A stretch of DNA of 64,000 nt from Campylobacterota bacterium (GCA_030152305.1 JASKOM010000005.1:79620-143619), one strand, 5' to 3'. Positions 541 through 55,926 are shown, numbered from the stretch's first letter. Notes: generated from the letters alone by a model not told the origin. Numbers and translations: made by a program.

Positions 541-542
541 TC

Positions 543-2954: not shown

Positions 2955-2963
2955 CTAAGTTTA

Positions 2964-4026: not shown

Positions 4027-4164
4027 TTATTTATTCGACCCCGTGTCATTGCCTGTAATGACGAAGTTGTTGTCATCCAGAAGCGAAGATCCCGTAATTT
4101 GTTTTGGGATCTAAATTAATTTGAAAGAAGACCCTGAAACAAGTTCAGGGCGACGAAAAGTTTA

Positions 4165-4896: not shown

Positions 4897-4968
4897 ATAA
4901 AACCTATATTTTTATTTTAACGGTAGCGACGACTTGAGAACTTGCCCTACTGTTAAAAAGATTTTAAC

Positions 4969-5214: not shown

Positions 5215-5333
5215 AATAACCTTTCGTTTTTTATTTCTTAATATTTTACAAAAAATAAAAAATCGAGTCTATTTTATGCTTTTCGTCATGCCAAAGTGAA
5301 AGCCGTCATCCCGAATTTATTTCGGGAGCTAAG

Positions 5334-5351
5334 TCCGTGCCACGACACGGA
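5334..5351 (-). terminator. GC-rich hairpin just after the R-M operon stop (TCCGTG-N6-CACGGA)
   Basis: The 6-bp stem was read directly. No clear U-tract follows. It is adjacent to a short CCCGAA hairpin at 5309-5327. Confidence 0.35.
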
Positions 5352-5359
5352 ACTAATTT

Positions 5360-21724: not shown

Positions 21725-21817
21725 ATTTAAATTTAACTTTTTATTTTAATTTTGTTGTTTGAGAAGATAATATTTTGGGAGATCCCCCGAAAACGGGAGA
21801 CAAAAAAGAATAGTTAA

Positions 21818-30995: not shown

Positions 30996-31004
30996 TTTTA
31001 TATT

Positions 31005-31086
31005 CCAATCTATTTTACTTAACAATTGCTACATTTATGTATCAATTGCTAACTGCGAGTTTTGACTCGGGGAGATCTCCCAAAGC
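31005..31086 (-). repeat. Partial (3' half), inverted copy C of the ~196-bp repeat family
   Basis: The reverse complement reads GCTTTGGGAGATCTCCC-CGAGTCAAAACTCG-CAGTTAGCAATTG-ATACATAAATGTAGC-AATTGTTAAGTAAAATAGATTGG. It aligns with 37273-37355 and 52308-52390. Confidence 0.8.
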
Positions 31087-31224
31087 TTTCAACACTATGT
31101 TAAAAGCACCTAATTTTTGAATAACATATGAAATTACAACTGCTGGTCGTGCTTTATAAATATTTGAACTAGCAAACGGAAATTTAACGACGATAACATA
31201 ATATTTATTATAAATATTTGTCAT
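31042..31224 (-). pseudogene. Truncated MazF/PemK-like toxin (first ~46 aa only)
   Basis: YYVIVVKFPFASSNIYKARPAVVIS matches the PemK N-terminal beta-strands and K.RP motif. From residue ~47 the ORF reads into repeat copy C (ALGDLPESKLAVSN). Confidence 0.5.
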
Positions 31225-31420
31225 AAATAGTATCTTCTTCGTTGTTCCAAATTTTTTCTAAAGTATTTTCAGAAAGTCTATTAAACTCAACATCTTCATT
31301 TTTTACATTTTGTTCTTTCATAAACTTTGTAAAAAAATAGATCTCTTTTAAAATATCTTCAGATAAACTTTCAATTTCCATATGTAAAAAATCTCTTAAT
31401 TCTAAAGCACTCACAATCAA
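31208..31420 (-). CDS. Putative antitoxin (DUF2281-like)
   Basis: The pattern L..EIESLSEDILKEIYFFTKFMK...LSENTLEKIWNNEEDTIYDKYL is typical of small MazE-type/DUF2281 antitoxins. It overlaps the toxin remnant by 17 nt. Confidence 0.5.
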   Translation of the reverse strand: MIVSALELRDFLHMEIESLSEDILKEIYFFTKFMKEQNVKNEDVEFNRLSENTLEKIWNNEEDTIYDKYL

Positions 31421-31426
31421 ATTCCT

Positions 31427-36944: not shown

Positions 36945-37131
36945 TTTTTATCCTAAATAACAACATGAAACTTGGCTAATATTAATTTATATTATAAATT
37001 ACATAATTATTAATTGACATTAGCGAAATATCTAGATGTCTAATGTTATCTAAACACAAACTTAAATAATCTTAAATGAGAATCCATATAAAAGAATAGA
37101 GTGAAAAATAGATATATTTGATGGTTTTGAG

Positions 37132-37163
37132 AACCTCATCGATAAAATAATTTCGATGAGGTT
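37132..37163. terminator. Hairpin made of an inverted pair of the ACCTCATCGA motif (11-bp stem, 10-nt loop)
   Basis: AACCTCATCGA at 37132-37142 pairs with TCGATGAGGTT at 37153-37163. It lies in the intergenic space between two minus-strand units. Confidence 0.5.
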
Positions 37164-37355
37164 AGTTGTTTACTTGTAACAAATATGCTACAATAACTTA
37201 CATATACCGATGTCTGTAGCCGAAAACCAAGGGCAGATATATGGTAAAAAGCGCCTTGAGTGACCCTCGAGGCTTTGGGAGATCTCCCTGGATTAACAGT
37301 CCACAGTTAGCAATTGTTACAGAAATATAGAGATTGTTAAGTAAAATAGATCGGT
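37160..37355 (+). repeat. ~196-bp repeat family, full copy A (possible structured RNA or MITE-like element)
   Basis: About 96% identical to 52195-52390 (7 substitutions by hand alignment). It contains the 12-nt palindrome GGGAGATCTCCC, several short hairpins, and 5'/3' segments that can pair (TTGTAACAA..TGCTA with TAGCA.TTGTTACA). Confidence 0.85.
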
Positions 37356-37366
37356 GATGGACAGAT

Positions 37367-39028
37367 TTATCTTATAGGATTAAGCGAAAAGTTGTTTATT
37401 AATTCAAAGTGATTAGTTTTATTATATTCAGTATTGACTAATTCTCGATTATTCCAGAATACTTTAACAGTTTTGTTTTTGTCAAGAGTCCAATTTAACT
37501 TAAGAGATTCACCTGGTTCATAATATCGATCAAGTGCTAAAAAAACACCGCCAATTTCTCTAAAAAGATATTTTGCTTCACCGTCAGAACCGTAATATAA
37601 AAATAGATCGATACGATTTTGATATTCAGAAAAATGATAATTATAAATTCCTTTTGAATTTGGAGCAGTATCATTTGGAATAAACTTATCGAAACTGTTA
37701 TCTTTTCGAATCCAAATCGAGTCAGCCATAATGTCTGAAAGTTTAATTTTTGTTAAACCTTCTCGTTCTTGATTATAACTATGCATTGAAGCACCTTGTG
37801 AAACAGCATTATTTTTAGAAAAATCTATAAATTCTACTTGTGTATTTTGAAAAAATTTACTCAAGACTTCTTTGACAAGATAAAACTTAGAACTGCCACC
37901 AGTAAAAATAAAAAGATCGATATCTTGTCTATTAATTTTGTGATTAATTAAACTATCTTTTAACGGTTTGATTAAATTACCTTGATCCGATAATAGATTT
38001 GTAAGTATTTTATTTTTTAATAATTTATCAGTTATTTCTAAATCGTTTATATATCTTCCATTAAGCAATTCAAAATTAACAGTTGTGTTAAATCTTTCTT
38101 TCATTCGTGGATTATTTAAACGATCAATAATTCCATTATTAAAATCTATTTTGAACTTTTCAGCCATATATACAGCTTTTGCAATCATTTTTGCCTGATC
38201 TTCGTCGTTTAATTGATCAATGTTTTGATTACCTGGAGTTTCATTGAACTGATCTAAAAAATAAGAAGCAATAGCTTGATCGATATTATCACCGCCGAAA
38301 TCCATTCGTTTTGATCTTCCAATAATGTTTATATCAAAATCATTTTCATCAATATCAAAATGAACATTTGCAATAGAAATATCTAATGTTCCACCGCCGA
38401 TGTCATAAACAACAACTTTTTTAGCTTGTTCAAAATATAAATTATCGAATTTATTAGATTCATTGCCAATTGTATTAATAAAATTTAGTAAAACAGCTGT
38501 TGGCTCATCTAAAATCATCGGATTTGAAAAACCTGCAATTTCCATTGCATGAATTGTTGCATTTCGTTCATCGCTGTTAAATGCCGCTGGAATTGTTACA
38601 GTAACTTTATTAAAATTATTTGTGTTAAATCTTTCAACAAGAGAGTTATAAACTGTTTTTAATAATATTGCTGAAAGTTCTGTCATTCCATATGATTTAA
38701 TATCAGAATTATTAGAAAGTTTTGGAACATCGATTACGGCAATTGTTCCCATTCGTGTTTTAACAGAACGAATTGTTTGTAACGGATATGTGCCATTTCC
38801 ATATAAATATTTTGCATAAGCTCCAGTATAAATTTTTCGATTATCTCGATCAATATAAATACTTGATTGAAGACCTTTTGAATTTCTATCAAATTCAAAG
38901 TTTTCATTCATTTGATAAATATTAATTGTTGTTAATTTATCAAGAGGATTTTCCCTGTTGTTTAAAATTTCAATCACTGAAACTGTTGTTTCGGTTGTGC
39001 CTAAATCGATGCCTACATATAAAGCCAT
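37367..39028 (-). CDS. Hsp70/DnaK-like ATPase paralog 4 (last gene of the operon)
   Basis: VGIDLGTTETT, LDEPTAVLL, VYDIGGGTLDIS, FTGGSSKF, followed by a ~140-aa beta-rich C-terminus. Confidence 0.8.
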   Translation of the reverse strand: MALYVGIDLGTTETTVSVIEILNNRENPLDKLTTINIYQMNENFEFDRNSKGLQSSIYIDRDNRKIYTGAYAKYLYGNGTYPLQTIRSVKTRMGTIAVIDVPKLSNNSDIKSYGMTELSAILLKTVYNSLVERFNTNNFNKVTVTIPAAFNSDERNATIHAMEIAGFSNPMILDEPTAVLLNFINTIGNESNKFDNLYFEQAKKVVVYDIGGGTLDISIANVHFDIDENDFDINIIGRSKRMDFGGDNIDQAIASYFLDQFNETPGNQNIDQLNDEDQAKMIAKAVYMAEKFKIDFNNGIIDRLNNPRMKERFNTTVNFELLNGRYINDLEITDKLLKNKILTNLLSDQGNLIKPLKDSLINHKINRQDIDLFIFTGGSSKFYLVKEVLSKFFQNTQVEFIDFSKNNAVSQGASMHSYNQEREGLTKIKLSDIMADSIWIRKDNSFDKFIPNDTAPNSKGIYNYHFSEYQNRIDLFLYYGSDGEAKYLFREIGGVFLALDRYYEPGESLKLNWTLDKNKTVKVFWNNRELVNTEYNKTNHFELINNFSLNPIR

Positions 39029-39040
39029 TTATTTTCCTGC

Positions 39041-40693
39041 TTAATTATCTTGATTGTTTTGAGTTGCAACAGTTTCAGCTTTTTGAGTTTCAACTATTTT
39101 TTCTAATTTTGCATGAATAACAACTGTGCCATCAACAGAAATAGCTGGAGAAAGAACTTTAAATTTATCAAAACTTAATTCGCCTTTAATAAAACGAGCA
39201 AAATCATTTTGGTTATTTGCATTGATTTCAATTACCTCATCTTTTGCAAATTTTTCAGTAATTATTTCACCAAACATTGATTGAACAGTTAAAAAGCTTG
39301 ATTCAAATTGCACTGCCAACTGTTTAGCTATTTTGATTTGAGCCTGTTTTTTGCCTTCAGCAATTCCGTTTTGTTTAGCTTGATTAAGTTTTTCAGCATG
39401 ATTTTTTGCATCTACTTTAGCTTGTTCAAGGTCAGCTTTTTCTTGAATATATTTTTGAGAAATATAAGCTAAATGTTCCAAACCATCAACCATATATTTA
39501 TGAAGATCAACAATTGCTTTTTCTTCAACAGGAATATGTAAATCTGCTTGTTGTTTTGAATTAAGATTATCAAGTTTTTTGTTGATTAACTTCAATTCTT
39601 CTGTTTGTTTTGTAAGAGTTGCAGGTAGCATTTCTAAATCTTGAATAAGCGGTTGAGAAAGTTTTTTATTAATTTCATCAACTGGAGTTTTAAGATCGTC
39701 AATTACAACATCAGTAAATTTAATTAATTTCTGATCTATTTTGTTTATTCCTTCTTGAATTGAACCTTTAATATTTTCATGAAAGTTTTTTGTTTTTTCA
39801 GCAAGATCTTTAGCTTGTTGTTCAACACTTTTTTCAGCACTTGTAACTTTACTGCTTATCATGTCGATGTCATATTTTGCAGGCAAACTTCTCACCGATG
39901 AGGTGTTGTTTTCTATTATTTTTACTGAAGTTTTCAAACTGGATATATCATTTTCAAGATTTCTTGTTGTTGAACTTTTAATAACTGTTAAGTCTGTTTT
40001 AACAGATTCAAGAGATTTTTTTATCTCTGTTAGAACTGAAATATCGAATGTTGCTTTCATTTTGTCCTCTTCTGTTTTTTTATTGTTTGATTGATCGCTG
40101 ACCTCATCGTTATTTTTATTTGATGAAGAAAGTGCATTTTGCGAACCGCTACTTTGTGCTGAATTGTTGTTTGATGGAATATTTGATTCAACTACCAACC
40201 AACCTTGACAAGCTGTTTGTGCTTCTTTGTTTGAACCTCTTTGAACATTTAATTTTTGTTTTTCACAAATGTTTTTTAACAGTTCGTCAATTTCTGTATT
40301 TTTCAAATAACAACGAATTCTAATTCCAGCTAAAGCTGTCCAAAAACCATCTTTTAAAGAATCACTAGGATAGATATCTTTTGCTACAGTTTTTAAAACA
40401 TTAATAACAGCTTCAATTACATCTTTTTGATTTTTTTTATCTGTAAGACAAGATTGGTTTTTATCAAGTCCATTGTTTGCTGTTTCCAACTTTTGTAAAA
40501 GTTGGTTATTATTTTGTATTCCCACTTTTTTACCCTTTCCATTTTTATTTGGTTTATTGTTTGGTTTATTTTCTTGTTTCTTTGGAGGCTTAACAGCACT
40601 AACTTTTTGTTCAGTCCCCTGTTTTGCAGGATTAAAAACTAAATTTTTTACAGTATTTACAAAATCTGTGATTATTGACATTTTAATTATCAA
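39041..40693 (-). CDS. Lys/Asn/Gln-rich coiled-coil protein, C-terminus possibly GrpE-like
   Basis: Basic low-complexity N-region, long heptad-like central region, and a C-terminal end (FKVLSPAISVDGTVVIHAKLEK) that resembles the GrpE beta-domain tail. Confidence 0.5.
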   Translation of the reverse strand: MIIKMSIITDFVNTVKNLVFNPAKQGTEQKVSAVKPPKKQENKPNNKPNKNGKGKKVGIQNNNQLLQKLETANNGLDKNQSCLTDKKNQKDVIEAVINVLKTVAKDIYPSDSLKDGFWTALAGIRIRCYLKNTEIDELLKNICEKQKLNVQRGSNKEAQTACQGWLVVESNIPSNNNSAQSSGSQNALSSSNKNNDEVSDQSNNKKTEEDKMKATFDISVLTEIKKSLESVKTDLTVIKSSTTRNLENDISSLKTSVKIIENNTSSVRSLPAKYDIDMISSKVTSAEKSVEQQAKDLAEKTKNFHENIKGSIQEGINKIDQKLIKFTDVVIDDLKTPVDEINKKLSQPLIQDLEMLPATLTKQTEELKLINKKLDNLNSKQQADLHIPVEEKAIVDLHKYMVDGLEHLAYISQKYIQEKADLEQAKVDAKNHAEKLNQAKQNGIAEGKKQAQIKIAKQLAVQFESSFLTVQSMFGEIITEKFAKDEVIEINANNQNDFARFIKGELSFDKFKVLSPAISVDGTVVIHAKLEKIVETQKAETVATQNNQDN

Positions 40694-42200
40694 TTACTGA
40701 AGTCATTTCAGCTGTTTGTATTAACAGATCTTGTTCGTTATAAAACTTAACTTCTATTTGATTTTGTAAACTTTCTCTAGATATTGATATTCTCACACGA
40801 TTATTTGTCAAATTTTGTGTATTAAATATTACTTTGCCAATTTTTGTGCAATTATCGATTTGCGAAGAATCACCTTCATAAATATAAATTGTTAAATTCG
40901 TATTATTTTGATTATTTGCAAAATAATAATCTTGTTTTGATGATTCGATACCGTAATCATGATTTTTTGACAAAATAGGTTTAAACGATGTGCCTTGAGC
41001 GATACCGATACTTTTGCTAGTTTTTTTAATAACTTTAAATGTAACATTGCCTCCCTTTGTCATTCCAGCAACAATACCAGCACCGTGTCCAACTAGTTCG
41101 TTTAAATTAGGTCTCGATTCAGGCTCTTTGCCAAAAAATTTATGAAGCAATTTTTTAATTGCAGGAATTGCACTTGAACCACCAGCTAAAATAACTCGAT
41201 CAATATCTTTAGGTTCAATAGTTAAATTATTATCAGAATAAAAAAGTTGTTCGAGCGAGTTTTGAATTCGACCTAAAACATTATGAACTCTTAATAATTT
41301 TTCTAAGTCGTTTCTATTAAAAGTAAAATCTAAAGTTTTTTCTTTGCCATTAACAACAAAAACCTCAAAAATTTCGTATTCGTCATCTGTTGAAAGCAAT
41401 TCTTTAGTTTGACGAGCAAGTGTATAAAGAGTTAATTTAAATTTCGCTCTTTCGTTTTCATTTGAAAAATCTTGCCAATTTACATTTAATTTTTTTCGAA
41501 ATTCTTCAGTAATTAAAAAATCGATGTCATTTCCACCCAAGTTTTCAACACCGTCAGTATTTAAAACTTCGAGTGTTACATTTGTTTGATTGTTTTTGAA
41601 ATTAATTAAAGTTGTATCAAGAGTTCCACCACCAAAATCAAAAACAACGATATTTTCTTGATGATTATTAGTTTGTATTGTTTGATTTAGCATTCCAAAA
41701 GAGATCGCCGCTGAAACAGGTTCTTCAATAAGACCGATAACAGTCAAACCAGCATTTTCAGCTGATTGAACGATAAGTTTGCGATAATTTTCAGAATAAG
41801 AATAAGGAACAGTTATAACAACACCATCAATTTTACGATTTTCGTTAGATTCAACTTTATTTTTGATAGATGAAAAAATCATTGTTGCAAGTTCTATTGG
41901 TTTAACTCTACGATTATTTAAATTTTTAACAGTGTAAAAAGTATCGTTAGTAACAATAAATCTTTTTATATCTTTAAAAAAATTTAAAGGATCAGCTGAT
42001 CCTCTTGTTGTTGCCGTATTTCCTATAATATTATTTTTGTCATTTTCAATATATATAACATTTTCAAATATATTTGAACCTCCAAATTGTCCTAAATTAG
42101 CAACAGGAACAGCATTATTTCTTACAAAATCATATTTTGTTACAAACATTGTTGATGTGCCGAAATCAATACCTAAATACAACATTTTTAATTTTTCCAA
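40683..42200 (-). CDS. Hsp70/DnaK-like ATPase paralog 3
   Basis: LGIDFGTSTMF, IEEPVSAAISFG, VFDFGGGTLDTT, LAGGSSAIPAIKK. Confidence 0.8.
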   Translation of the reverse strand: MEKLKMLYLGIDFGTSTMFVTKYDFVRNNAVPVANLGQFGGSNIFENVIYIENDKNNIIGNTATTRGSADPLNFFKDIKRFIVTNDTFYTVKNLNNRRVKPIELATMIFSSIKNKVESNENRKIDGVVITVPYSYSENYRKLIVQSAENAGLTVIGLIEEPVSAAISFGMLNQTIQTNNHQENIVVFDFGGGTLDTTLINFKNNQTNVTLEVLNTDGVENLGGNDIDFLITEEFRKKLNVNWQDFSNENERAKFKLTLYTLARQTKELLSTDDEYEIFEVFVVNGKEKTLDFTFNRNDLEKLLRVHNVLGRIQNSLEQLFYSDNNLTIEPKDIDRVILAGGSSAIPAIKKLLHKFFGKEPESRPNLNELVGHGAGIVAGMTKGGNVTFKVIKKTSKSIGIAQGTSFKPILSKNHDYGIESSKQDYYFANNQNNTNLTIYIYEGDSSQIDNCTKIGKVIFNTQNLTNNRVRISISRESLQNQIEVKFYNEQDLLIQTAEMTSVIDN

Positions 42201-42985
42201 ACAGTAACATGTGCAGGAACAACAATATATTTATCGCTAAATATATAAGCTAATGATGAAATATCTTTAATTGTGTCTTTTTTAGATTGATCGTTAGTTT
42301 CGCAATCATTACAATCTTGAGGTGCAACTAACGACCAAAGTTCGTCACTATTTAAACTAGTCCCAATTTTTATATGATCACAAGTATAAATACCCAAACT
42401 AGAAATAAATCTATTAAAAATCTTTAAAACCTCATCATAAACAGTATGATATTTTCTACCGTTATCAACAACTCTAATCACATTTTCGATAATATCTTTT
42501 AAGATTTTTTGCAAGACTTTATAAAAATATTGTTCTTTAATATTGTCGATATTCCAAGTAGGATTTTCATCAAGAGTCTTTAAAAATCTTGAACTATATG
42601 TTTTTAATTGCCCTTGTCGATTTTTTACAAGATTTAAAAGTGTTTCAAGGCTATTTTTATCATTTTCAGAAATGCTTACTGCATCAATAAGATAGCCCAT
42701 ATCATGAATAAAGTCTTTATTTATTTCTGTTAGATCTTCGTTTATGTCTGCGATTGCTTTTTTTGAATTTATTTTTTCAAAAATTGGCTCTAATTTTTTG
42801 ACAACTTTAAACATATCTTTCGAATTTATAACAACAGTTTTGTTATTTTCTTGAGCTTTTGTGATATGTTCAATATAAATTCTTTTGTAATATGACTCAA
42901 GATGAGTTTTGAGTTCAGCATTAAATTCATAAATATTAAAAGTTTCTGGATTATAAGAGCTTTGCATTGGTTGATAACTATACAT
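42188..42985 (-). CDS. GrpE-like nucleotide-exchange-factor homolog (tentative)
   Basis: Helical N-part, then a C-terminus (LGIYTCDHIKIGTSLNSDELWSLV...IKDISSLAYIFSDKYIVVPAHVTVWK) that parallels the GrpE pattern G.e.i...G..FDP..H.A......v..v...GY.l.dRvlRPA.V.V.K. Confidence 0.5.
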   Translation of the reverse strand: MYSYQPMQSSYNPETFNIYEFNAELKTHLESYYKRIYIEHITKAQENNKTVVINSKDMFKVVKKLEPIFEKINSKKAIADINEDLTEINKDFIHDMGYLIDAVSISENDKNSLETLLNLVKNRQGQLKTYSSRFLKTLDENPTWNIDNIKEQYFYKVLQKILKDIIENVIRVVDNGRKYHTVYDEVLKIFNRFISSLGIYTCDHIKIGTSLNSDELWSLVAPQDCNDCETNDQSKKDTIKDISSLAYIFSDKYIVVPAHVTVWKN

Positions 42986-44954
42986 TAGAAGAAGCCTTTT
43001 TAGCTGTTAGATTTCTTGAATTAATTTGTTTGCTAGAACGACTATCAAAAACTTTTACATCAACTTCAAGAATATCTTCTCGAGTTAATTCAAAAGTTAC
43101 TTGAATTTGTAATTCACCTTTTTGATGAGGTGGCAAACCTTCAATTTTAATAACATCAACTGAAGAAATACCAGAATCATAAGTATTAATTGCTTTTGAG
43201 TTTTTGGTGCGATTAAATACCATAATATCTACGACATCTTGATTATCTCTCAAAGTTGTATATTCTCGAGTTTCTCTTATAGGCAATTCGCTATCAGCAG
43301 GTATTAAAACATCAAATTTATAATTTTGTAAGCTGACACCAAAATCATGTAAAGCACGATCATTATAAGTTGGTTTAATATTTATAAGTTGATCATTGCC
43401 CCATTCACTCATTGCTTCGATAACAGCTCCAACAGAAATTACAGTTGATGTATCAATGTTAGAAATAGGTTGTTTATTAAAAAGATCATTAACACTTTTT
43501 TTAACAGCTGGAATATTAGAAGTTCCACCTGCTAAAATAATTTCATCGATGTTATTAACTGTTAAATTATTGTTACTTAGTATTCTGTTTATAACAGTAG
43601 TCGCTTTTCTTCTGATATCAGAAAATAAATTATCAAATTTATGTCTTGTAAGTTTTATATTAAAACTATATGCTTCACCGTTTGGTAACATAAGCCCAGC
43701 TAGATTTATTTCACTATCGTTAGCATCAGAAAGTTCTTTTTTTGCTCTTTCACATTCATTAAAAATCTCTTCATTCATAGAATCAGGACTGAACATATCT
43801 AAATCCAGATTGTCATTAAGAATTTCTTCATAAATATATTCAACAACTTTATTAGTAATATCAACACCACCTAATTTTGAATCACCATCCGAAGCGATAA
43901 TTTTTACATTGTTGTTCTTTAGTTCTAAAATAGAAACATCAAATGTTCCACCGCCAAAATCATAAACGAGCATTGTTGAATTCGAATCTTTGTTTGCTAT
44001 ACCATAAGCGACACCAACAGCAATTGGTTCTTTTTGAATTCGCACCTCATCGAAACCTGCATCTAGACCTGCATTTTTAACAGATTCAATTTGAGTTTGA
44101 TTAAAAGTTGCTGGAACAGTAATAACAGCTTTGGTAACAGGTTCTCCAATTACTTTATAAGCTTCATCTCGTAAATATCCTAAAAGAAATGATGATGCTT
44201 CAATAGGCGAAATATAAATAGTTTGATTGTTAGATTTTTGTCTAATTTGTGCAATATCAAAATCAATAAGAGATAAAGCTGTTATGCCAAGAGTTTTAGC
44301 TTTCCATAATAAATTTTTATCAGATGATACAAGAATAGCTGGTTCTCCATCTTTTAAAGCTTGATAAGCGATACTTAATATTCGATTATCATTTGTATCA
44401 TCGCTAAAATCAGAAGGCAAAATATCAATTTCGCTATTTTTATATTTAATAACAGATGAAGAAGATTGAATGTTGCTTATTGCTCGTTTAACAGGAAGTT
44501 CAATATCTTGTCTCCATCGACTTTGTTCAACAAGTTCATCAACAACTGTAAAAGGCAAACAAGCAACTTCGTTATTTTTTAATTTACTAAGAATATCTGG
44601 TTCATCTATAAAAATATTTGTATCGAATATATAACAAATCATTTCAGAATCTTCATTTTCTGCTTCTGCTGATTGTGTTTCAAAGTTTATTGGATATTTT
44701 TGTTGTGTGCCTAAAGCTCGTTTAAACTCTTTTAGCATTCTTTTAGGATTAACAATTCCTCTTCTTAAAGCTTGTTCGCCAAAAAATAATTTATTTTTTG
44801 TTTCGAAAAATATAACAGATGGAATAAGAAACGAATTTCTAATATTTATTTGATGGATCAGTCCATTTTAAAAAAACGAAACTACCGAATTTGAAGTTCC
44901 AAGGTCAATCCCGACGAAAGATCCTTTGACTTGTTCTAATATTGCTTCAGGCAT
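42978..44954 (-). pseudogene. Hsp70-like ATPase paralog 2 with a PhoH-type PIN domain inserted in the NBD; in-frame TAA at codon 29
   Basis: The hand-translated upstream part is MPEAILEQVKGSFVGIDLGTSNSVVSFF*NGLIHQINIRNSFLIPSVIFFETKNKLFFGEQALRRGIVNPKRMLKEFKRALGT, in frame with ORF 42978..44738. The stop is at 44868-44870. The PIN domain reads YIFDTNIFIDEPD...VVDELVE...NDNRILSIA...LVSSDKNLLWKAKTLGI. The rest of the NBD follows (AVITVPATFN, QKEPIAVGVAYG, YDFGGGTFDVS, LAGGTSNIPAV). Confidence 0.7.
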
Positions 44955-45067
44955 ATTTTTTTATCCTTTATGTTAATTTATATTTTATATACGATGAGGT
45001 ATTAAATGCTTAAATGCTGAATTCGATGAAATTATAAAATCCAGCATTGACAAAAAATAGCTAAAAA

Positions 45068-47066
45068 TTAGGCTTTTTGAATCGAGCTAATAATCGTTTT
45101 AAAAATGTCAGCTAATTTATCAATAGAATCTATTTTGTAATAATCACCAGAACTTGCCATTCCAGATAAAAGAGATTCATTGACACCATTGCCAACTCCA
45201 ATAGTTGCAAGTCTAATACCAGAATTTTTCATTTTGTAACTTTCACTTAAAGCTGGAGCTTCGGAAGAACCGCCATCTGTAACTAATATAGCCAAAGATG
45301 AATTTCGAATATATCTCGTATTAAATAAATTATTATGAGAGATTTTAATTGCATCGGCAATATCAAGTCCCACCTCGACAACTTAAACGATTAATAGCAC
45401 TTAAAATTTGGTTTTTATCATTTGTGAAATTTGACAAAATAACAGCCGAACTTTCAAATTCAACGAGAGCTAATTTATGAACATTAAGATCTATTAAATT
45501 CGAAACAAGATATGAACATGCTTGTTGTGCTTTTTCAAGAGGATAACCGCACATACTTCCAGAAACATCGATCATAACAACAATGTCAAAAGATTCAACG
45601 ACAGGAGTAATTTTCTTTCTTGAACCTTTATCGATTTCAATTTTTTCACTTTTTGTTGAATTTGTTCGAATATCTCGAGCCGTTACTTTTAGAATTCTAT
45701 TTTTATCAAATTCAAAAGTAACTTCAATTTTTGGCACACCTCGAGTAGCATGTTCAATATTGGTCAAAGCAAAACCGCCGTAGAAATCATTATTATTTAC
45801 ATTGTCAAGATCTTCGCCTTCAAAAACATTGATATCAATAAATTTTTGATAATTAGATGTTGTTGTATAAGTTTCTGTATATGAAATAGGATAGTGCTGA
45901 TTTTTTTTCAAAATAGGAGAAAACTTATCGTTAATTAATTCGATTCCAAGAGAATGAGAAATAATATCGTTGATTTTAACTTGCATTGTGTTGTCATTAC
46001 TTGCAACGATTGCCGCACCCATAGCAACTAATGTATCTAACGGTTTATCTGAATATGGAGTTTTGCCAAAATAATTTGTTACAAATTCTTGAATTTTTGG
46101 AATTTTTGCTGTTCCACCAACAAGAATAATTTTATCGATGTCATTTTTATTAATAGAATTTTTATTCAAAGATCTATCAACAATTCGTTCTATTTTGTTA
46201 AAAATTTGATTAGAAATATTTTCAAAATCAGCTCGATTTAATGTCAGTTGAAAAGAATAATTACCAAATAAATTTGGAATTTCGACATCAAAAGATAAAC
46301 TTTCAGAAAGAGCTTTTTTAGCTTCTTCAGCTTGATTTAAAAGACTATAAACAGCTTTGTTATATTCATCTTGCGATAAGCCAGATTTGTCAAAAGTTGA
46401 TAAATTAATAGCTTTATTCCGTCGAATATGAGATAAAAAATGTTCATATATAATTTGATCAAAATCATCTCCGCCAAGTTTGGCATCGCCATCAATCATA
46501 ATAGTATTATAATTTTTATCTTTAACTTCTAATACACTAACATCAAAAGTTCCACCGCCAATATCAAAAACAAATAATTTTTGATTAACTTTATCATCAA
46601 AAGCATAAGCAACAGCCGCAGACATTGGTTCAGTGATAATTTGTTTAACAATTAACCCAGCTTTTTCACCTGCTTTTTTTGTTTCTTCAATTTGATTTGA
46701 TTTAAAATAAGCTGGGACTGTAATAACTGCCTCAATTTCAGTAAAACCGTCTTTATTTAAAGCTTTAACAAATGCTTTTAAAATTTCTGTTGCAACATCA
46801 GTCGGTGAATATTTTTTATTATTAATATTCCAATATTTATTATTATCACCCATAAAAGCTTTTGAAGATTTAATAAAATTTTCAGGTTTTGTTACAGCTC
46901 GATTTTTAGCTTGACGACCAACACTAATATTATTTTTATCATCAATAAAAATTACTGACGATAAACTTTCAACACCTTGAAACCTAACGAATTTTAACTG
47001 ACCATTTTCCATATAAGCCAACACTGAATTTGTGGTTCCTAAATCAATACCTACAGCGATTTTCAA
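45068..47066 (-). pseudogene. Hsp70-like ATPase paralog 1 fused to a C-terminal vWA domain, split by a 1-nt frameshift near 45363-45373
   Basis: ORF 45363..47066 has VGIDLGTTNSV, ITEPMSAAVAYA, VFDIGGGTFDVS and LVGGTAKIPKI, then a vWA start (VVMIDVSGSM...RLSCRGGT*). ORF 45068..45373 continues the vWA domain (DIADAIK...LAILVTDGGS...). Removing one T from ACTTGAT restores ..CRGGTDIADAIK.. Confidence 0.7.
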
Positions 47067-47069
47067 AGC

Positions 47070-48494
47070 CTATCTCCTTTCTAATTTTTCTAATTTATCT
47101 AATTGCGATGTTGCTATTAAAAAAGCTCTAACTTTTGAATTAAACATATGACGAACTAACATGATTGTGCCTATGTTTTCTTTGCATTCATCAGTTAGTT
47201 TATTTTCTCTGCCTTCAATTAATGCCAAATGATTCGCAAGAAATAAACTCATTGTTTCAGCTTGTTTATAATAATCTTCATTAAAACATACATTTTTTAT
47301 AATTTCATTAACTAATTTGTTTGAAGTTTTTGATAATTGTGAATCAACATATGCTAAAAGTCCATTATTATTTAAAGCATTATTGCTATTTTTTACCTCA
47401 TCCAAAAATTCATCAATAGAATCAAAACCGTTAGATTCAGATGTCCAATGTTCAATTTTGTCAAACACTTTTTCCATTCCAGCATTTAATCGAAGATGGA
47501 ATTGTTTTATTTGTGCGACGAATCTTTGAGCTATTTCTTTATTTTTAAATGTTGGCGGTTCAAACATGTGAAGAATAAAAATACTAGCTGAATTGTGTTG
47601 TTTATAAACTTGTCTAAATAAATTTACCATTTCTTGTTCAAAGTTTGGCAATTTATAAAACCTACTTAAAACTCGTTTAATTAAATATTTAGTTTTTTCA
47701 TCAGTGTAACGAGGGTTATTATTTATATAATTAACAAGATGATTAAAACCAGTTTGACCTAAATCAATTAAAGCAAATTCAAGTAATCGATTAGAATTAT
47801 TATCGACTTGAATATTAGCTAGAAACCATTTAGCAACTTCGTTTTCACCGTATTTAACGATCATTTGTGCAACAACAGGTTTTAAAAAATCAGTGTTATG
47901 ATTTTTGATGTAATTTAATAAATTTTCATCATTAAATAAATATTGACTTATTTCGTTTGTAATTTTTAAGAAATTTTCTTTAGAAATTAAATCTAATAAA
48001 TATCTTTGCAGACATATTGATCTTCGGAATAATTTTTGATCATTATTTAAAGCCATTTTGCTACATTCAGCAACAGGCAATTTTGGTAATCGAATTTTTT
48101 CGATAGTTTCTTTGAATAATATACTTGAAAATATTTTGTCTTCAGAAACATCTTTTGTAATTTCTAATATTTGTTCATTGTCAAGAGAGTTTAATAATGA
48201 CTTTGTTAAATCTATGATGTCATTTCTTTTTGACTTTGATTTCTGTAAGTTGATCAGCCAATTATTTTTAATAATCGTATGAACCAAAGTAATTGTTCCA
48301 AGTTTGGATCTATAAATATTTAAATTTTGTGTTTCGTTGTTTTCAATAGCTTGTTTTACTTTTTCAATATCTTCTTTTGATATATAAAAAGATTGATTTT
48401 TTTGAAATCTTTTATCAATCGCTTTTTCCATCATTTTTAATGATTCTGACATTTTATTTGTTCCTATCTCTTGACTTGCAACCGTAATAATCAA
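47070..48494 (-). CDS. Unknown all-helical protein, first gene of the Hsp70 operon
   Basis: ORF with no motif I recognise. The probable start is Met15 (MSESLKMMEK, 48452). Confidence 0.6.
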   Translation of the reverse strand: MIITVASQEIGTNKMSESLKMMEKAIDKRFQKNQSFYISKEDIEKVKQAIENNETQNLNIYRSKLGTITLVHTIIKNNWLINLQKSKSKRNDIIDLTKSLLNSLDNEQILEITKDVSEDKIFSSILFKETIEKIRLPKLPVAECSKMALNNDQKLFRRSICLQRYLLDLISKENFLKITNEISQYLFNDENLLNYIKNHNTDFLKPVVAQMIVKYGENEVAKWFLANIQVDNNSNRLLEFALIDLGQTGFNHLVNYINNNPRYTDEKTKYLIKRVLSRFYKLPNFEQEMVNLFRQVYKQHNSASIFILHMFEPPTFKNKEIAQRFVAQIKQFHLRLNAGMEKVFDKIEHWTSESNGFDSIDEFLDEVKNSNNALNNNGLLAYVDSQLSKTSNKLVNEIIKNVCFNEDYYKQAETMSLFLANHLALIEGRENKLTDECKENIGTIMLVRHMFNSKVRAFLIATSQLDKLEKLERR

Positions 48495-50927: not shown

Positions 50928-51848
50928 ATGTCAAAACGAAAAGCAACGATTTTATTAAATATGGGCGGAGCAAATAATCCAAATGAAGTAGCTGTTTTTT
51001 TAAAAAACATGTTTAACGATCCATATATTATTAAAGCTCCAAAGTTAATTCGCAAAATGATCGCAAATTTAATCGTTTGGCGACGAGCTGAATATTCGAA
51101 AAATAATTTATTGCAAATAGGTGATAAATCGCCAATCGTAACTAACACGAAGAAATTATTAAAAAAATTAAATCGTGCTGGTCGTTTTGAGGCAATTATG
51201 CGATACACACCGCCGTTTGCAAATGAAATTCTCGAGAAATTGCGAAAAGATAAAATCGAACATTTGACACTTTTGCCAATGTATCCGCAATATTCGACAA
51301 CAACGACTTTGTCTTCTTTCAAAGATGTTTTTGACACTCTCGAAAAAATGAACTGGAGTGAAATTTCATTAACGACAATAAAGCCATATTATCTCGACAA
51401 TCGCTATTTGCGAATAATTACAAATTCGATAAATAATGTTATTCCTGATCCTGAAAATTGGAATTTAATATTTTCGGCTCATTCGCTTCCGCAAAAAATT
51501 ATCGATTCTGGAGATCCTTATTTATCGCAAATTGAATCTCAAGTTTCGACACTTAAAAATATGCTCAATAAATTTAAATCTGTTCATTTGGCTTTTCAGT
51601 CAAAAATTGGACCTTTAAAATGGCTTGAACCGTCATTAAATTCTAAATTATCAGAATTCCAAAATGAAAAAGTTGTTATTTATCCAATATCTTTTACTCT
51701 TGATAATCTCGAAACTGATTTTGAGTTAAGTATCGAATATCGTCATATTGCTAAAGAGCTTGGCATTAATGAATATGTCGTTATCAAAACTCCAAACGAT
51801 TCTGAAGATTTTGTCAAATTTTTAATCGAATTATCGAATGAAAATTGA
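50928..51848 (+). CDS. hemH: Ferrochelatase
   Basis: ILLNMGGANNPNEVAVFLKNMFNDPYII, PMYPQYSTTT and FSAHSLP. Confidence 0.88.
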   Translation: MSKRKATILLNMGGANNPNEVAVFLKNMFNDPYIIKAPKLIRKMIANLIVWRRAEYSKNNLLQIGDKSPIVTNTKKLLKKLNRAGRFEAIMRYTPPFANEILEKLRKDKIEHLTLLPMYPQYSTTTTLSSFKDVFDTLEKMNWSEISLTTIKPYYLDNRYLRIITNSINNVIPDPENWNLIFSAHSLPQKIIDSGDPYLSQIESQVSTLKNMLNKFKSVHLAFQSKIGPLKWLEPSLNSKLSEFQNEKVVIYPISFTLDNLETDFELSIEYRHIAKELGINEYVVIKTPNDSEDFVKFLIELSNEN

Positions 51849-52200
51849 TATTTCTAATTTATGGTCAGACCGCCAATTAGCTGGTGGTTTGCCTGACAAA
51901 AAAGATTACAAAAAAAATATCGATGGCGATGAGGTCGCAAAAGCAAAAACAGAAATTCTGAAACCTCATCAACATCAATTATATTTTCGTAAAGAAAAAA
52001 GATCAGGCAAAACGGTTACAGTTGTTGCTGAATTTTATTTAAATAAAAGTGAATTAGAAGATTTGCATAAAAGTTTAAAAAAGAGTTTATCAACAGGCGG
52101 AACAATTCGAAACAGTGAATTAGAATTTCAGGGTGAATTTGAAGAAAAATTAAGAAACTTATTGGAAAAACAGGGCTTTAAATTTAAAAAGAAAGGTTAG
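51838..52200 (+). CDS. yciH: SUI1/YciH translation-initiation-factor-like protein
   Basis: RKEKRSGKTVTVV...LKKSLSTGGTI...EFQGEF. Its stop codon (TAG 52198-52200) lies inside repeat copy B. Confidence 0.75.
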   Translation: MKIDISNLWSDRQLAGGLPDKKDYKKNIDGDEVAKAKTEILKPHQHQLYFRKEKRSGKTVTVVAEFYLNKSELEDLHKSLKKSLSTGGTIRNSELEFQGEFEEKLRNLLEKQGFKFKKKG

Positions 52201-52390
52201 TTGTTTACTTGTAACAAATATGCTACAATAACCTACATATACCGATGTCTGTAGCCGAAAACCAAGGGCAGATATATGGTAAAAAGCGCCTTGAGTAACC
52301 CTCGAGGCTTTGGGAGATCTCCCTGGATTAATAGTCCGCAGTTAGCAACTGTTACAGAAATGTAGAGATTGTTAAGTAACATAGATCGGT
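52195..52390 (+). repeat. ~196-bp repeat family, full copy B
   Basis: Direct repeat of 37160-37355. Confidence 0.85.
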
Positions 52391-52476
52391 TAAATAAAAA
52401 TGATCCTCTTGCAAAATTTCGTAAATGAAACTACAAAATCGTTAATTTATATGAATTATGCAAGAGGTTGATTTTC

Positions 52477-52561
52477 ATTCTTCGATTTGTTTAAGAAAAA
52501 TAGTTCCGTTATCTTCGAAGTCAAAAGTTAAAGTAACTGTATAATTGTTGTCTATTCGCAA
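52477..52561 (-). repeat. 85-bp duplicate of the 3' end of lipoprotein gene 55345..55926
   Basis: Matches 55347-55431 along its whole length, with no mismatch seen by hand alignment. Together the two copies bracket about 2.8 kb of accessory DNA. Confidence 0.85.
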
Positions 52562-52606
52562 ATTTAATATTTTTGGCTTGATCATCATCTCAAAGCAAAA
52601 CAAGTC

Positions 52607-52641
52607 ATCCCGAAGCGATAGCTCCTGTAATTTATTTCGGG
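52607..52641. repeat. CCCGAA/TTCGGG hairpin repeat copy
   Basis: GTCATCCCGAAGCGATAGCTCCTGTAATTTATTTCGGG, as in the 1-5 kb array. Confidence 0.75.
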
Positions 52642-52669
52642 CTCTTTTCTTTTTTCACGGAACTACGAA

Positions 52670-53413
52670 TTACAAAACCGTTCGCATTTTCCATTTAATT
52701 TGAATAAACTTGCCGTTTATCTCAATTCCAAAATCGCGACCAGATTCTGTTAATTTCCAAATTTTATTTTCTCGAATTTGAAAACCTTTGTGAGCTAATA
52801 TCAAATTAATTTCAACAGGCGATTTGTTAATCATTTTGCCAAGTTCGGTCGGCAGGAAAAATTGATTTTCGAGATCAATTTTGAATTTATCGAGAATCGA
52901 ATATCTAAAATTTGCTAAAAAATATTGCTCAAGTCGAAATAAATCAATCGGATTTGTATTTCGTAAATTTGCGAGTAAGTTTGTTGTTGCTATGAAGTTG
53001 TTATCGAGTTCGATAATTTTTTGTGTTGAATTTTCAATTTCTGGAAGTTGTAAGTTTTGAGTTTGTGGTTGAATAGTTTGCGATTTTAGGATTTCTTCAA
53101 TTGTCATATCGCACCAAACTGCAAAATCTGGAGAAAGCCAACGAGCAAAAGCAACTATTAAACTTTGATGAATCCATGTTCCTTGTTCATTAGGATTTCC
53201 ACCTTTACGAATTACCACTAAGCTGTCAATAGGCATTTTAGCCCATCGTGAAACTGCATTGATATATTCTTGAGTTTCTTTTGTTCTAAGCCAATCTTTT
53301 GGGACTTTGTTAAATTGTTTGGCTGTTAAAGAGGCATTTAAAAATAATTTTGTGTCATGTTATTGAGAATATATAATGTGAAAATCGTTATAACCTTTAG
53401 ATATAATTTCCAT
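52670..53413 (-). pseudogene. Antirepressor: KilA-N domain + constant-type C-terminal module, with an in-frame TAA at codon 18
   Basis: Hand translation from ATG 53413 gives MEIISKGYNDFHIIYSQ*HDTKLFLNASLTAKQFNKVPKDWLRTKETQEYINAVSRWAKMPIDSLVVIRKGGNPNEQGTWIHQSLIVAFARWLSPDFAVW (KilA-N pattern). The stop is at 53360-53362. The C-terminus is homologous to the array constant module. Confidence 0.7.
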
Positions 53414-53502
53414 AGATTAATCCCTTTGATGTAAAAAGTTTGTTGCAATAGAATTATATATCTTTTGGGGATTAATTACAATTATATTGTAGATATAAAG
53501 TA

Positions 53503-53835
53503 TTAATATGTCATGGCAAAAACACTTTCATTAAATTTTTTAAAATTATTAATTATTTGCTGTTGATGATTAAATTTAATCATTAAGTCAAAAAATACTT
53601 TTGCATAATCTGGCAATTCTCCTGTTGAACTCCAATTTCTGATAGTTTGTGCTTTAAATTTTGTTCTTTCCGCCAATTCTTTTTGAGTAATGCCCAATTC
53701 TCGACAAGTTTTTTTAACTAAGTTTTCTTCTTTGTCTTTTTCGGTTTTCTCGACTTCGCTCAAGTTTAGTCCTTTTTGATTAATTTGATTTTTCGTAATT
53801 TTAATATTTTTGGTTTGATCATCATCCCGAAACAA
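53503..53835 (-). CDS. Cro/CI-type HTH regulator, cassette 6 (N-terminus uncertain)
   Basis: Contains ENLVKKTCRELGITQKELAE, then a variable helix and tail. The first ~40 codons read through repeat DNA. Confidence 0.55.
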   Translation of the reverse strand: MFRDDDQTKNIKITKNQINQKGLNLSEVEKTEKDKEENLVKKTCRELGITQKELAERTKFKAQTIRNWSSTGELPDYAKVFFDLMIKFNHQQQIINNFKKFNESVFAMTY

Positions 53836-53912
53836 AACATCCCGAACTCGTTTCAGGATCTAATTAATTTGAAATATTTGAATTGCTATTTTTGTGTGAA
53901 GTTTAATATAAG

Positions 53913-54098
53913 TTATGAGGAGTGTTTAGCACTCGGTTTTTCTTCCTGCTGTCTTCTAGTTAATATTACTTCCACTTCTTCTACTGTGATCAATTCCAAA
54001 AATTTTATTATATTTTTTCTATAATCATTTCGTTTTTTCCAGTCGTATAAAGTTGAATTTGGAATAATAAACTTCTCTTTAATTTCGTGATCTTTCAT
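53913..54098 (-). CDS. Small putative DNA-binding protein
   Basis: The IPNSTLYDWKKRN motif resembles small HTH/excisionase-like regulators. Weak evidence. Confidence 0.35.
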   Translation of the reverse strand: MKDHEIKEKFIIPNSTLYDWKKRNDYRKNIIKFLELITVEEVEVILTRRQQEEKPSAKHSS

Positions 54099-54207
54099 AA
54101 AATACCTTATTGCATAATCTTTCGATATTTTATCCGAAAATCAGATACTTGACTATTGTCCGAATTTCGGATAAAATTTTGAGTGAATTTTAAATTAAAG
54201 GAACTAA

Positions 54208-55243
54208 ATGATAAATGGATTATCTTTATTCTCAAATGTAGGCATAGGAGAAACATATTTTAAAGAAGTTGGCATCAATATAGTTGTTGCTAATGAGCTG
54301 ATACCTAAAAGAGCAGAATTTTATAAACACATACACAATGAAACAAATATGATTCAAGGAGATATAACCAATGAACATATTTTTAATACTGTTATAGATC
54401 AAGCAAAAAAAATTAAAGTGCGAATTTTTAGTTGCTACTCCTCCTTGTCAATCATTTTCTGTTGCTGGTAAAATGCAAAAAGATGATCCTCGAAGTTTAT
54501 TAATAATCCAAGTGGTTAGAGCAATAAAAGAATTACAGCCTGAATATGCAATTATTGAAAATGTTATAGGAATGCCAAAAGCTGAAATAAATGTAGATGG
54601 TGAATTAATAGTAATCGCTGAATATATCAAAAGAGAGTTAAAGGCTTATTTTATTAACTCTCAAAATGTTGATTTTGCTGATTACGGAATTCCACAACAT
54701 AGAAAACGAAACATTACATTATTATCTAAATCTCAAAAATGGGAATTTCCTATAAAAGAAAAACATGTAACAGTAAAAGAGGCAATTGATCATTTACCAT
54801 CTTTAGAATCATGTGAAAAATCTGATATTAAATGGCATGTTGCAAAAAAACATAATGACGACCATATTTTATGGTTAAAACATACCCCAACAGGTAAAAC
54901 AGCATTTGACAATATTGTTCATTATCCAAAAAAAGATGGCAGAAAAATTAAAGGTTTTTCAACGACATATAAAAGAATGGATGCTGATAAACCAGCACCA
55001 ACTATAACAATGGCAAATGGTTCTATTTCAAGTCAAAATAATGTTCATTATGGAAGATTAAAGCAAGATGGAACATATTCAGATGCAAGAGTTTTAACAA
55101 TTAGAGAGCTACTTATTTTAACTACTTTGCCCGAAGACTGGAATATTCCAGATTGGGCAACTGATAATTTAATCCGTGAAGTAATTGGAGAAGCTGTTCC
55201 GCCACTGTTTTTTAAAAAGGTTTTAGCAAAACTAATAAATTAA
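54208..55243 (+). pseudogene. DNA (cytosine-5) methyltransferase, frameshifted in an A8 tract (54405-54412)
   Basis: Frame 1 gives motif I (LSLFSNVGIGE). Frame 2 gives LVATPPCQSFSVAG (motif IV), then AIIENV (motif VI). With A7 the protein would read ..IDQAKKLKCEFLVATPPCQSFS.. Confidence 0.8.
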
Positions 55244-55303
55244 CAACCTGCTTTATTAAATTGAAGCCCATGATAGGCTTCACCTTTCCCGAATTCATTT
55301 CGG

Positions 55304-55340
55304 GATCTAATTAATTTGAAATATTTGAATTGTTATTTTT
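55304..55340. repeat. 37-bp direct repeat GATCTAATTAATTTGAAATATTTGAATTG(C/T)TATTTTT (other copy 53857-53893)
   Basis: Read directly. Each copy follows a CCCGAA-type hairpin. The pair brackets the small-HTH + methyltransferase module. Confidence 0.8.
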
Positions 55341-55344
55341 AGTT

Positions 55345-55926
55345 TTATTCTTCGATTTGTTTAAGAAAAATAGTTCCGTTATCTTCGAAGTCAAAAGTTA
55401 AAGTAACTGTATAATTGTTGTCTATTCGCAAGTCTAAATTTTCTTGCAAATCTTGATCATAAACTTTAAATTCTAATTCGTTGTAAGCAAGATATTTATC
55501 ATTTGAAGTTTTTGTAATTAAAGGCTCTTCCTTAAAATTAAATACTCCATCAATAATTGTATGTGTTCTGAAAGTTAAAGTAAAAGGTTCAAAATGTTGC
55601 TCTTTTGAAATAATTTCATCTAATGTAAATTCATCTCCGTCTTCAGAATGTGGGGTTACTTGTCCAGTAACTTTATATTTATAGCCCCATTGATACGGTA
55701 AGTTTTCTATTGAATAAGCATGAATAGATTGATCAACAAATTTGTATGCAAATTTATATCTATCTTTACTTTCCATTAACCAAGCCATCATTGGTATTCG
55801 ATAATAATCAATTATGTATTCACTTTGACTTATAACAGAGTTGTTGACATCTGTTGTTGGATTGTTTTCATTGCCACATCCTCCAAAAAGGAGGAATGTT
55901 GCTATTAAAAATAGCCGTTTGATCAT
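55345..55926 (-). CDS. Lipoprotein
   Basis: Lipobox LFGGCGN. It directly abuts the protease gene stop. Confidence 0.6.
   Translation of the reverse strand: MIKRLFLIATFLLFGGCGNENNPTTDVNNSVISQSEYIIDYYRIPMMAWLMESKDRYKFAYKFVDQSIHAYSIENLPYQWGYKYKVTGQVTPHSEDGDEFTLDEIISKEQHFEPFTLTFRTHTIIDGVFNFKEEPLITKTSNDKYLAYNELEFKVYDQDLQENLDLRIDNNYTVTLTFDFEDNGTIFLKQIEE

Follow-up and report, generated by a model that had tools for sequence, protein, structure and literature searches.

A sequence repeated in the window, i.e. the whole 64,000-nt stretch of Campylobacterota DNA that was analysed, raises the question of what kind of genetic element it represents. A first-pass annotation had described it as a structured RNA or a MITE-like element that marks or creates junctions of accessory DNA. 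The findings are best explained by an element family that is new but of a well-known kind, and neither by a new RNA class nor by a marker of accessory junctions. The repeats probably constitute a low-copy family of small, non-coding, non-autonomous, MITE-like mobile elements in a Thiovulum-like bacterium. The analysis provides a verified insertion polymorphism and defined ends for a small mobile element not described before, and with these a strain-level marker.

Host and Related Sequences

The host is a large sulfur bacterium that has not been cultured, and little work has, to our knowledge, been done on its mobile DNA. The proteins encoded next to the two full-length copies of the repeat are found only in one NCBI contig (168 kb) and in the Logan assembly of run SRR24719468. 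The sucD protein of the window is 91%–92% identical to that of Candidatus Thiovulum stygium (CP091137.1, GCA_021582295.1; PMC9938260), and the matches that follow are from Sulfuricurvum and other Campylobacterales. Thus the host is a Thiovulum-like member of the Campylobacterota. The paper on the Ca. T. stygium genome makes no mention of transposons, mobile elements or insertions (PMC9938260).

Three further contigs are referred to below: L004, an ENA contig, L005, a JGI 3300009455 contig, and L003, which is from the same JGI sample as L005. The yciH protein of the window shares a 90% cluster with proteins of L004 and L005.

Copies of the Repeat

A repeat search of the window shows a 197-nt direct pair at 96% identity, at positions 37159–37355 and 52194–52390 (termed copies A and B), and an inverted match to both of these at 31005–31057, within a third copy (C). 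By direct count A and B differ by exactly seven substitutions, the number given in the first-pass annotation, and six of the seven are transitions.

Copy A is a full-length element of 188 bp on the plus strand (positions 37165–37352), with the flanks GGTTA (37160–37164) and GGTGA (37353–37357). An alternative parse, TTAG...GATCGG, places it at 37162–37354. Copy B is also a full-length 188-bp element on the plus strand (52200–52387) and is found between perfect direct copies of GGTTA (52195–52199 and 52388–52392). Copy C, on the minus strand (31005–31114), shares its 3′ part with A and B. It had been described as an 82-bp partial copy, but is instead a short form of ~110 nt with its own left end. 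A second short-form copy is present at positions 23–131 of L003, upstream of a different gene than C. It is the only true match in 241 million metagenome records (JGI metagenome scan). The known members of the family are then two full copies (A, B) and two short ones (C, L003), dispersed over two strains, and a right-end module of ~110 nt is common to all four.

The 21-nt motif at the right end has three occurrences, with 0.00 expected. The 12-nt palindrome GGGAGATCTCCC is present in three exact copies and in one with a single mismatch, the expectation being 0.31 at two or fewer mismatches. The G+C content of the element is 39%–40%, that of the window 29%. The flanks of A and B are unrelated and the similarity ends sharply at the element boundaries.

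The Logan contig that carries the Hsp70-like gene cluster begins inside copy A and ends inside copy B. Short-read assemblers commonly break at repeats, and the element accounts for assembly breaks in Thiovulum metagenomes. That a short-read assembly breaks inside both copies supports the reading as a mobile element.

A possible relic, TTTGGGAGATCCCCCGAAAACGGGAG, is found on the plus strand at positions 21771–21800 and contains the palindrome with one mismatch. It is situated between OmpA-family and NFACT genes, and it matches the element sequence TTTGGGAGATCTCCCCGA at 17 of 18 positions. The place of hairpin H4 (described below) holds yet another, GC-rich hairpin, CCCG-AAAA-CGGG. The sequence scores only weakly with nhmmer and with the covariance model. 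This sequence may be what is left of an element, or may have supplied one of its modules.

Insertion of Copy B

Site B is the sole site with a verified empty allele. L004 displays 98.4% identity to the window at positions 50934–52199 and the identity resumes at 52388, with BLAST pieces that overlap by exactly 5 nt. The site is empty in both L004 and L005 (flanks 98.4% identical). GGTTA follows yciH once in the relative, and the corresponding place in the window reads GGTTA-[188 bp]-GGTTA. The empty site reads AAAGGTTAAGA and the filled site AAAGGTTAG[...]GATCGGTTAAAT; in a longer view, the relative has ...AAAGAAAGGTTAAGAAAAATGAGC... and the window ...AAAGAAAGGTTAG[element]GATCGGTTAAATAAAAATGATC... 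The insertion adds 193 bp, i.e. 188 bp plus 5 bp, and the first base of copy B converts the yciH stop codon from TAA to TAG.

Since a near-identical strain has the site empty with base-precise junctions, B is a clean and recent insertion. This shows an insertion in the strain of the window; it should be noted that a precise excision in the relative would look identical. The site is dispensable, being empty in a conspecific strain. The proposal that the repeat is MITE-like and mobile is thus borne out by the empty site in a 98.4%-identical strain. The proposal of the first-pass annotation that the repeat marks or creates junctions of accessory DNA finds no support here, and the related statement that B borders a KilA/methylase mosaic is wrong. 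Copy B was simply inserted between two core genes, and ~187 bp of native sequence intervene between it and the mosaic.

The KilA-N/methylase block of 2.87 kb (positions 52578–55447) is a separate insertion with its own 110-bp direct duplication (52468–52577 and 55338–55447, 92% identical). Its genes code for a KilA-N protein, an HTH protein and a C5 cytosine methylase, the last split into two open reading frames (54208–54471 and 54473–55243). The block interrupts the 3′ end of a conserved gene of 193–203 aa, and neither of the two conspecific contigs (L004, L005) contains it.

Positions 1–5400 and 52600–53840 hold a tandem array, with four to five units of ~1.2 kb. In each unit a small Xre-type HTH gene is accompanied by a gene of the Bro-N, Rha or KilA-N domain type, the C-terminal part of which varies. 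A 42-nt hairpin motif, GTCATCCCGAAGCGATAGCTCCTGTAATTTATTTCGGGATCT, recurs in the units at positions 540, 1711, 2915 and 52604. The array adjoins a type I restriction-modification system (hsdS 5360–6400, hsdM 6460–8493) and looks like a diversifying anti-repressor or defence-associated array.

Location of Copy A

Copy A is found between the stop codon of an Hsp70-like gene and a hairpin at positions 37125–37162, upstream of an MCP gene. The Hsp70-like gene is the last of its operon (37367–39028, minus strand), and its stop codon is 14 nt from the right end of A. The earlier statement that A lies directly after the last gene of the Hsp70 operon needs a correction: the element and the Hsp70-like genes are on opposite strands, and the element is antisense to both adjacent genes.

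The hairpin directly left of A is a perfect 11-bp hairpin, AACCTCATCGA ... TCGATGAGGTT, and its 3′ arm overlaps the GGTTA flank. It looks like a terminator-type hairpin of the Hsp70-like operon, without a clear T-run. Copy A is thus found between the stop codon of the operon and its apparent terminator-type hairpin. No empty site for A was obtained, as close homologues of the flanking MCP and Hsp70-like genes are absent. The best homologues of these are 58% and 49% identical, respectively, and the 90% clusters of the flanking proteins contain the source genome alone.

The region at 37367–48494 (minus strand) has four Hsp70/MreB-fold paralogues interspersed with VWA, PIN-fused and unannotated genes. 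Close homologues of the cluster are absent from 5.8 billion proteins, and its last gene is 49% identical to its best match. It could be a lineage-specific Hsp70-like NTPase system, possibly with a role in defence.

The Short Form and a Truncated Toxin Gene

Copy C and the L003 copy are 89% identical over ~110 nt, which extends beyond the 82 nt that they have in common with A and B. ATTAGGTGC marks the shared point at which the similarity begins, and upstream of it the two sequences are unrelated. The left end of copy C is TTAGGTGCTT. Its first hairpin, GCTTTTAACA-TAG-TGTTGAAAGC, replaces the one found in A and B, and beyond this hairpin C consists of the shared right-end module. The short form is thus a distinct subfamily with its own left tip.

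Copy C ends 8 nt before the ATG of sucD and so lies directly upstream of this gene, as had been described. The L003 copy is 15 nt upstream of a gene of 190 aa. Copy C was also said to truncate a mazF-like gene, and this agrees with the alignments: a 60-aa open reading frame (31042–31224, minus strand) has a PemK/MazF-family N-terminus in its first ~35 residues, the rest being read-through into C, and homology to several family members ends at about residue 33–38. The 60-aa open reading frame itself has no Pfam or PDB match. P0192, a full-length homologue of 114 aa, matches PF02452 (E = 1.8e-13). Upstream of the toxin remnant is a small antitoxin-like open reading frame (31208–31420, minus strand) with a weak match to DUF2281 (E = 0.025, below the Pfam cut-off).

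The antitoxin-like open reading frame, the toxin remnant and copy C form a block of ~414 bp that is missing in Ca. T. stygium and related contigs. In Ca. T. stygium and three other related contigs, 56 nt separate a 217-aa gene from sucD, with no remnant and no element. The absence of the whole block from these relatives supports mobility. The sequence GGAAT flanks the 414-bp block on both sides (31421–31425 and 31002–31006). It is not relied on as a target duplication, since both copies coincide with ribosome-binding sites, which makes such a match commoner than naive odds would have it.

Most database relatives of the toxin at 31042–31224 (P0187–P0194) are truncated or internally deleted, with 46–102 aa versus 114 aa. 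Their sequences suggest that this PemK/MazF-like toxin family may undergo frequent decay in related bacteria. One truncated PemK homologue, L020, was considered as an additional insertion site and was rejected; it shows a simple frameshift and no element.

Predicted Secondary Structure

The full-length element is predicted to fold into a multi-branched structure (−51.1 kcal/mol, z −2.4), with its two ends paired to close it. The hairpins named in the first-pass annotation are all present in the sequence and are recovered by folding. The minimum-energy fold of copy A includes the end pairing proposed there, TGTAACAA...TGCTA with TAGCA.TTGTTACA.

The right-end module of A (positions 37253–37340, plus strand) displays four consecutive hairpins, H2–H5, and the same architecture is predicted independently in all four copies. 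An additional hairpin on the plus strand, H1 (37205–37246), comes from the minimum-energy fold and is found in the full-length form only, where A and B alone can be compared. H2 (37253–37273) is variable: GCCTTGAG-5-CTCGAGGC in A and B, and GCTTTTAACA-3-TGTTRAARGC in C and L003. H3 (37277–37288; GGGA-GATC-TCCC) is invariant. H4 (37289–37303) is again variable, with TGGAT..GTCCR in A and B and CGAGT..ACTCG in C and L003; three of its pairs are changed on both sides between the two forms. H5 (37307–37340) is formed by UUAGCAAUU/GAUUGUUAA and an upper stem, and its loop is GAAA, UAAA or GAGA.

The module has energies of −28.6 to −31.5 kcal/mol on the top strand (z −2.0 to −4.2) and of −19.9 to −23.8 kcal/mol on the other strand. 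The top strand thus folds better by 5–11 kcal/mol. There is one invariant G.U pair, and ~8 independent G.U events are found versus two A.C events. H3–H5 are recovered unguided by RNAalifold. On the proposed structure 94.6% of cells pair, versus 35%–46% with slid partners. In a control of 500 shuffles, 15 reach the observed covariation score and 19 the observed percentage paired. The covariation amounts to about one event, because there are four sequences from two lineages only.

The modelled hairpins appear to be conserved as structures whose sequences have been replaced and still pair, a conservation that is not statistically proven. This is in keeping with what had been noted by eye, as H2 and H4 differ in sequence between the subfamilies and pair in both. 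The same hairpins form with DNA parameters, so the folding fits RNA and single-stranded DNA alike and does not distinguish between them.

A scan of the whole window against Rfam 15 gave no match at gathering score. The best sub-threshold matches are at chance level (E = 0.6–7, with scores far under the gathering thresholds). A terminator scan shows no terminator after the element.

Coding Potential and Search for a Partner

A coding role for the repeat was rejected. The sole open reading frame shared by the full-length copies (29 codons) has three non-synonymous and two synonymous changes, which is no sign of purifying selection, and the frame is lost in C. Concatenated six-frame translations of the repeat gave nothing at E ≤ 10 against 5.8 billion proteins. 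The lack of a coding signal and of an Rfam family, together with the higher G+C content and the subterminal motifs described below, supports the reading as a mobile element.

The window contains core genes, the Hsp70-like cluster, the type I restriction-modification system and the Bro-N/Rha/KilA-N and HTH arrays. No transposase or recombinase family is present among the 39 window open reading frames with Pfam information (of ~62), and the ~8 kb past the right edge of the window contain no parent element, transposase or recombinase. Searches of the window and 163 kb of related loci with nhmmer and the module covariance model yielded no autonomous partner and no further copy. When one genome per species was scanned for the exact pattern, the only match was a chance one in an actinobacterial coding region. 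Three viral-contig scans found no copy, nor did blastn against plasmids and phages.

Termini and Mode of Insertion

All four copies start with TTAG and end with GATYGG. The tips of the full-length element are TTAGTTGTTTAC... on the left and ...TTGTTAAGTAAAATAGATCGG on the right. Counted from TTA, the left tips of A and B (TTAGTTGTTTAC) and of the short form (TTAGGTGCTTTT) are identical at 9 of 12 positions. The tips themselves are not inverted repeats; the inverted match is subterminal and imperfect. It involves a left motif, TTTACTTGTAACAA (37169–37182, plus strand), which is inverted with respect to TTGTTA-AGTAAA (37334–37345) and to TTGTTACA (37314–37321). The match of TTTACTTGTAACAA with TTGTTA-AGTAAA is 13 of 14 with one indel, at 4–7 nt from the tips.

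Two direct 12-mers, TAGCAATTGTTA and TAGAGATTGTTA (37308–37339, plus strand), are 20 bp apart and also form both arms of H5. By their arrangement, these and the inverted TTTACTTGTAACAA are plausible candidates for protein-binding repeats. A candidate outward promoter was read by eye at 37166–37194 on the plus strand (TTGTTT, 17 nt, TGcTACAAT with an extended −10 motif); a consensus promoter scan did not call it.

The flanks match at 5 of 5 positions at B (GGTTA/GGTTA) and at 4 of 5 at A (GGTTA/GGTGA), and C and L003 show no target duplication under any parse. Mobility is supported by the GGTTA/GGTGA flanks of A together with the unrelated surroundings of A and B, and likewise by the fourth copy, which is in a different gene context on a contig found with the conspecific strain.

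Two modes of insertion are considered, and the weights given to them are shares within the mobile-element explanation. Cut-and-paste or copy-and-paste transposition, in which the target is cut with a 5-bp stagger at sites that begin with GG, is tentatively preferred. The element would then be GTTG...GATC, with a preference for GG-initial targets. A DDE-type transposase would yield a 5-bp target duplication. Against this are the short copies, which have no duplication at all, and the presence of TTA before the element in all four copies. The flank pattern can equally be read as TTAG...GG termini inserted at a GG|TTA target. A circular intermediate with abutted ends (..GATCGG|TTAG..) that recombines with a junction-like target is a possible, though somewhat unlikely, course of events. 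A GG crossover is at odds with the three extra identical bases at B (chance probability ~0.026) and with the short copies, which are without the left GG. Neither model works without an additional assumption, be it a target preference or adjacent deletions.

The element would be moved in trans by an enzyme encoded elsewhere in the genome, and the TTGTTA-type repeats and the invariant 12-bp palindrome are the likely protein-recognition sites. Once inserted, the module would join neighbouring transcripts, as 3′ UTR in the case of yciH and as 5′ leader in those of sucD and the 190-aa gene in L003. As a matter of speculation, it may act in these transcripts as an RNA stabiliser, a processing site or a promoter donor.

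Alternative Explanations

The copies could be by-products of segmental duplication or homologous recombination and not be mobile, or could be similar by chance; this is hardly tenable. Such an origin would agree with the low copy number and with the position of A and B as direct repeats 15 kb apart. It does not agree with the sharp ends of the similarity and the unrelated flanks, with the additional copies in unrelated contexts, or with a chance expectation of 0.00. The conspecific strain, moreover, keeps the ferrochelatase–yciH side without B and with base-precise junctions. The empty B site excludes a segmental duplication as the origin of A and B, and a composite transposon with A and B as its ends is excluded by the intact ferrochelatase–yciH side in the strain that lacks B. 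It is improbable, to a lesser degree, that the module serves first of all as a functional RNA, whether a small RNA or a cis-regulatory or stabilising element, and that its spread is secondary to selection for this function. A functional RNA would account for the four-hairpin architecture predicted on the top strand in every copy, for H2 and H4 changing sequence and still pairing (H4 with three pairs changed on both sides), for the invariant G.U pair and most variable wobbles, which pair on the top strand only, and for the GAAA, UAAA or GAGA loop of H5. Three of the four copies also have the same orientation as the gene next to them. A mechanism that acts purely on double-stranded DNA would have no need of the strand bias of the hairpins, and this bias counts against a mobile element, as do a copy number far below that of typical MITEs, the lack of a parent element in the DNA searched, the subterminal and imperfect inverted repeats, and the short copies without a target duplication. 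Yet the covariation is essentially one event in four sequences of two lineages and exceeds the shuffle control only moderately, and the hairpins form with DNA parameters as well. Copy A is antisense to both of its neighbours, no terminator is found 3′ of the element, no Rfam family matches, and the site is empty, and so dispensable, in a conspecific strain.

The element may also be a derivative of an IS607-like or other circular-intermediate element, with the extent TTAG...GATYGG, a 2-bp GG crossover and no duplication; this is unlikely. The first description of IS607 was from Helicobacter pylori, which is of the same phylum as the host. IS607 inserts at GG, has GG at both termini, generates no duplication and has helically phased subterminal repeats in place of terminal inverted repeats (PMC6188088, PMC4058570). 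The serine transposases of the family use a circular intermediate and a GG crossover (PMC4058570, PMC6188088). In line with this, every one of the four copies has the TTAG start and the GATYGG end, the full-length and short forms agree at 9 of 12 positions of the left tip counted from TTA, and GG is found in the left flank of A and B and at the exchange point of the empty site (GAGG|..GATCGG| at A, AAAGG|..GATCGG| at B, AAAGG|TTAA when empty). Against it, B has five identical bases on each side and not only a 2-bp core (p ~0.026 for the three extra matches), A has four of five, and the left flanks of the short copies, AAAAA and ACTTA, are without GG. There is no tnpA or tnpB among the 39 window open reading frames with Pfam information, and no Rfam match, IS605-type RNA families included. 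If the element is nevertheless of this kind, the extra TTA identity at B would be due to chance or to a preference for junction-like targets, and the module could be a TnpB guide RNA scaffold. IS607 guide RNAs are ~150 nt long, multi-stem, on the top strand, and cross the right end (PMC10711439). More generally, the module might be a functional top-strand RNA carried on a mobile element, i.e. a guide-RNA-like scaffold or a portable RNA-stability or translation module, which is distinctly unlikely. The 3′ end of a guide-scaffold RNA would extend into flanking DNA, as it does in TnpB/IS607 right-end RNAs, and the functional module would be an undescribed RNA class with an undescribed partner protein in this lineage.

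A MITE-like mobile element remains the preferred reading. Two of its properties are somewhat unusual. Hairpins are swapped wholesale between the subfamilies with pairing kept on one strand, which makes the element a suitable case in which to ask if an RNA role is the reason that such elements are retained. The other property is the GG/TTAG junction pattern, which leans to an IS607-type mechanism. If a GG crossover is correct, the element would be a miniature IS607-family derivative, possibly a guide-RNA scaffold without its nuclease.

Relation to Known Elements

Integron attC sites and cassettes without open reading frames are similar in that structure is kept over sequence. A toxin-antitoxin remnant and the B junctions (G|TTAG.../...G|TTAA) are further points of likeness. 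The core sites of attC are RYYYAAC ... G|TTRRRY. G|TTRRRY is not matched at the junctions of A (G|TGATGG), C (G|AATATA) and L003 (G|AGCATA) and there is no inverse core site, and on this ground an integron origin was rejected. No integrase gene or cassette array is present among the open reading frames examined.

The PATEs of IS200/IS605 and the REP/BIME sequences resemble the element in their subterminal hairpins, strand-asymmetric structure and mosaic hairpin swapping. Elements of the PATE/REP type insert 3′ of a fixed motif of 4–5 nt without duplication and have conserved cleavage sites at both ends. This class was rejected, as B has a duplication and the 5 nt after GATC vary (GGTTA, GGTGA, GGAAT and GGAGC).

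The comparison with IS607 was made by the description of IS607 ends. The element resembles IS607 in that GG is found at the two junctions as well as in the empty target, that true terminal inverted repeats are lacking, that the subterminal repeats are short and phased, and that the right end has a structured module of ~110 nt on the top strand; the IS607 family is also native to the phylum of the host. Unlike IS607, the element has 5-bp and not 2-bp identity at B, its short copies are without the left GG, and no tnpA or tnpB was found.

MITEs and intergenic repeats, e.g. the Correia elements of Neisseria, RUP, BOX and SPRITE of pneumococci and ERIC of enterobacteria, offer the remaining comparison. 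The flanking repeat of Correia and RUP is TA. The present element differs from MITEs, Correia and RUP in its very low copy number, in inverted repeats that are subterminal and imperfect, and in its GG-initial 5-bp flanks in place of TA. As in these families, it is short and non-coding (188 bp or ~110 nt, under the ~500 bp of MITEs and within the 100–200 bp of the group) and is intergenic, at gene ends. It displays presence/absence polymorphism between strains with base-precise junctions at B, and it shares with the same group its hairpins, predicted co-transcription with neighbouring genes and probable mobilisation in trans.
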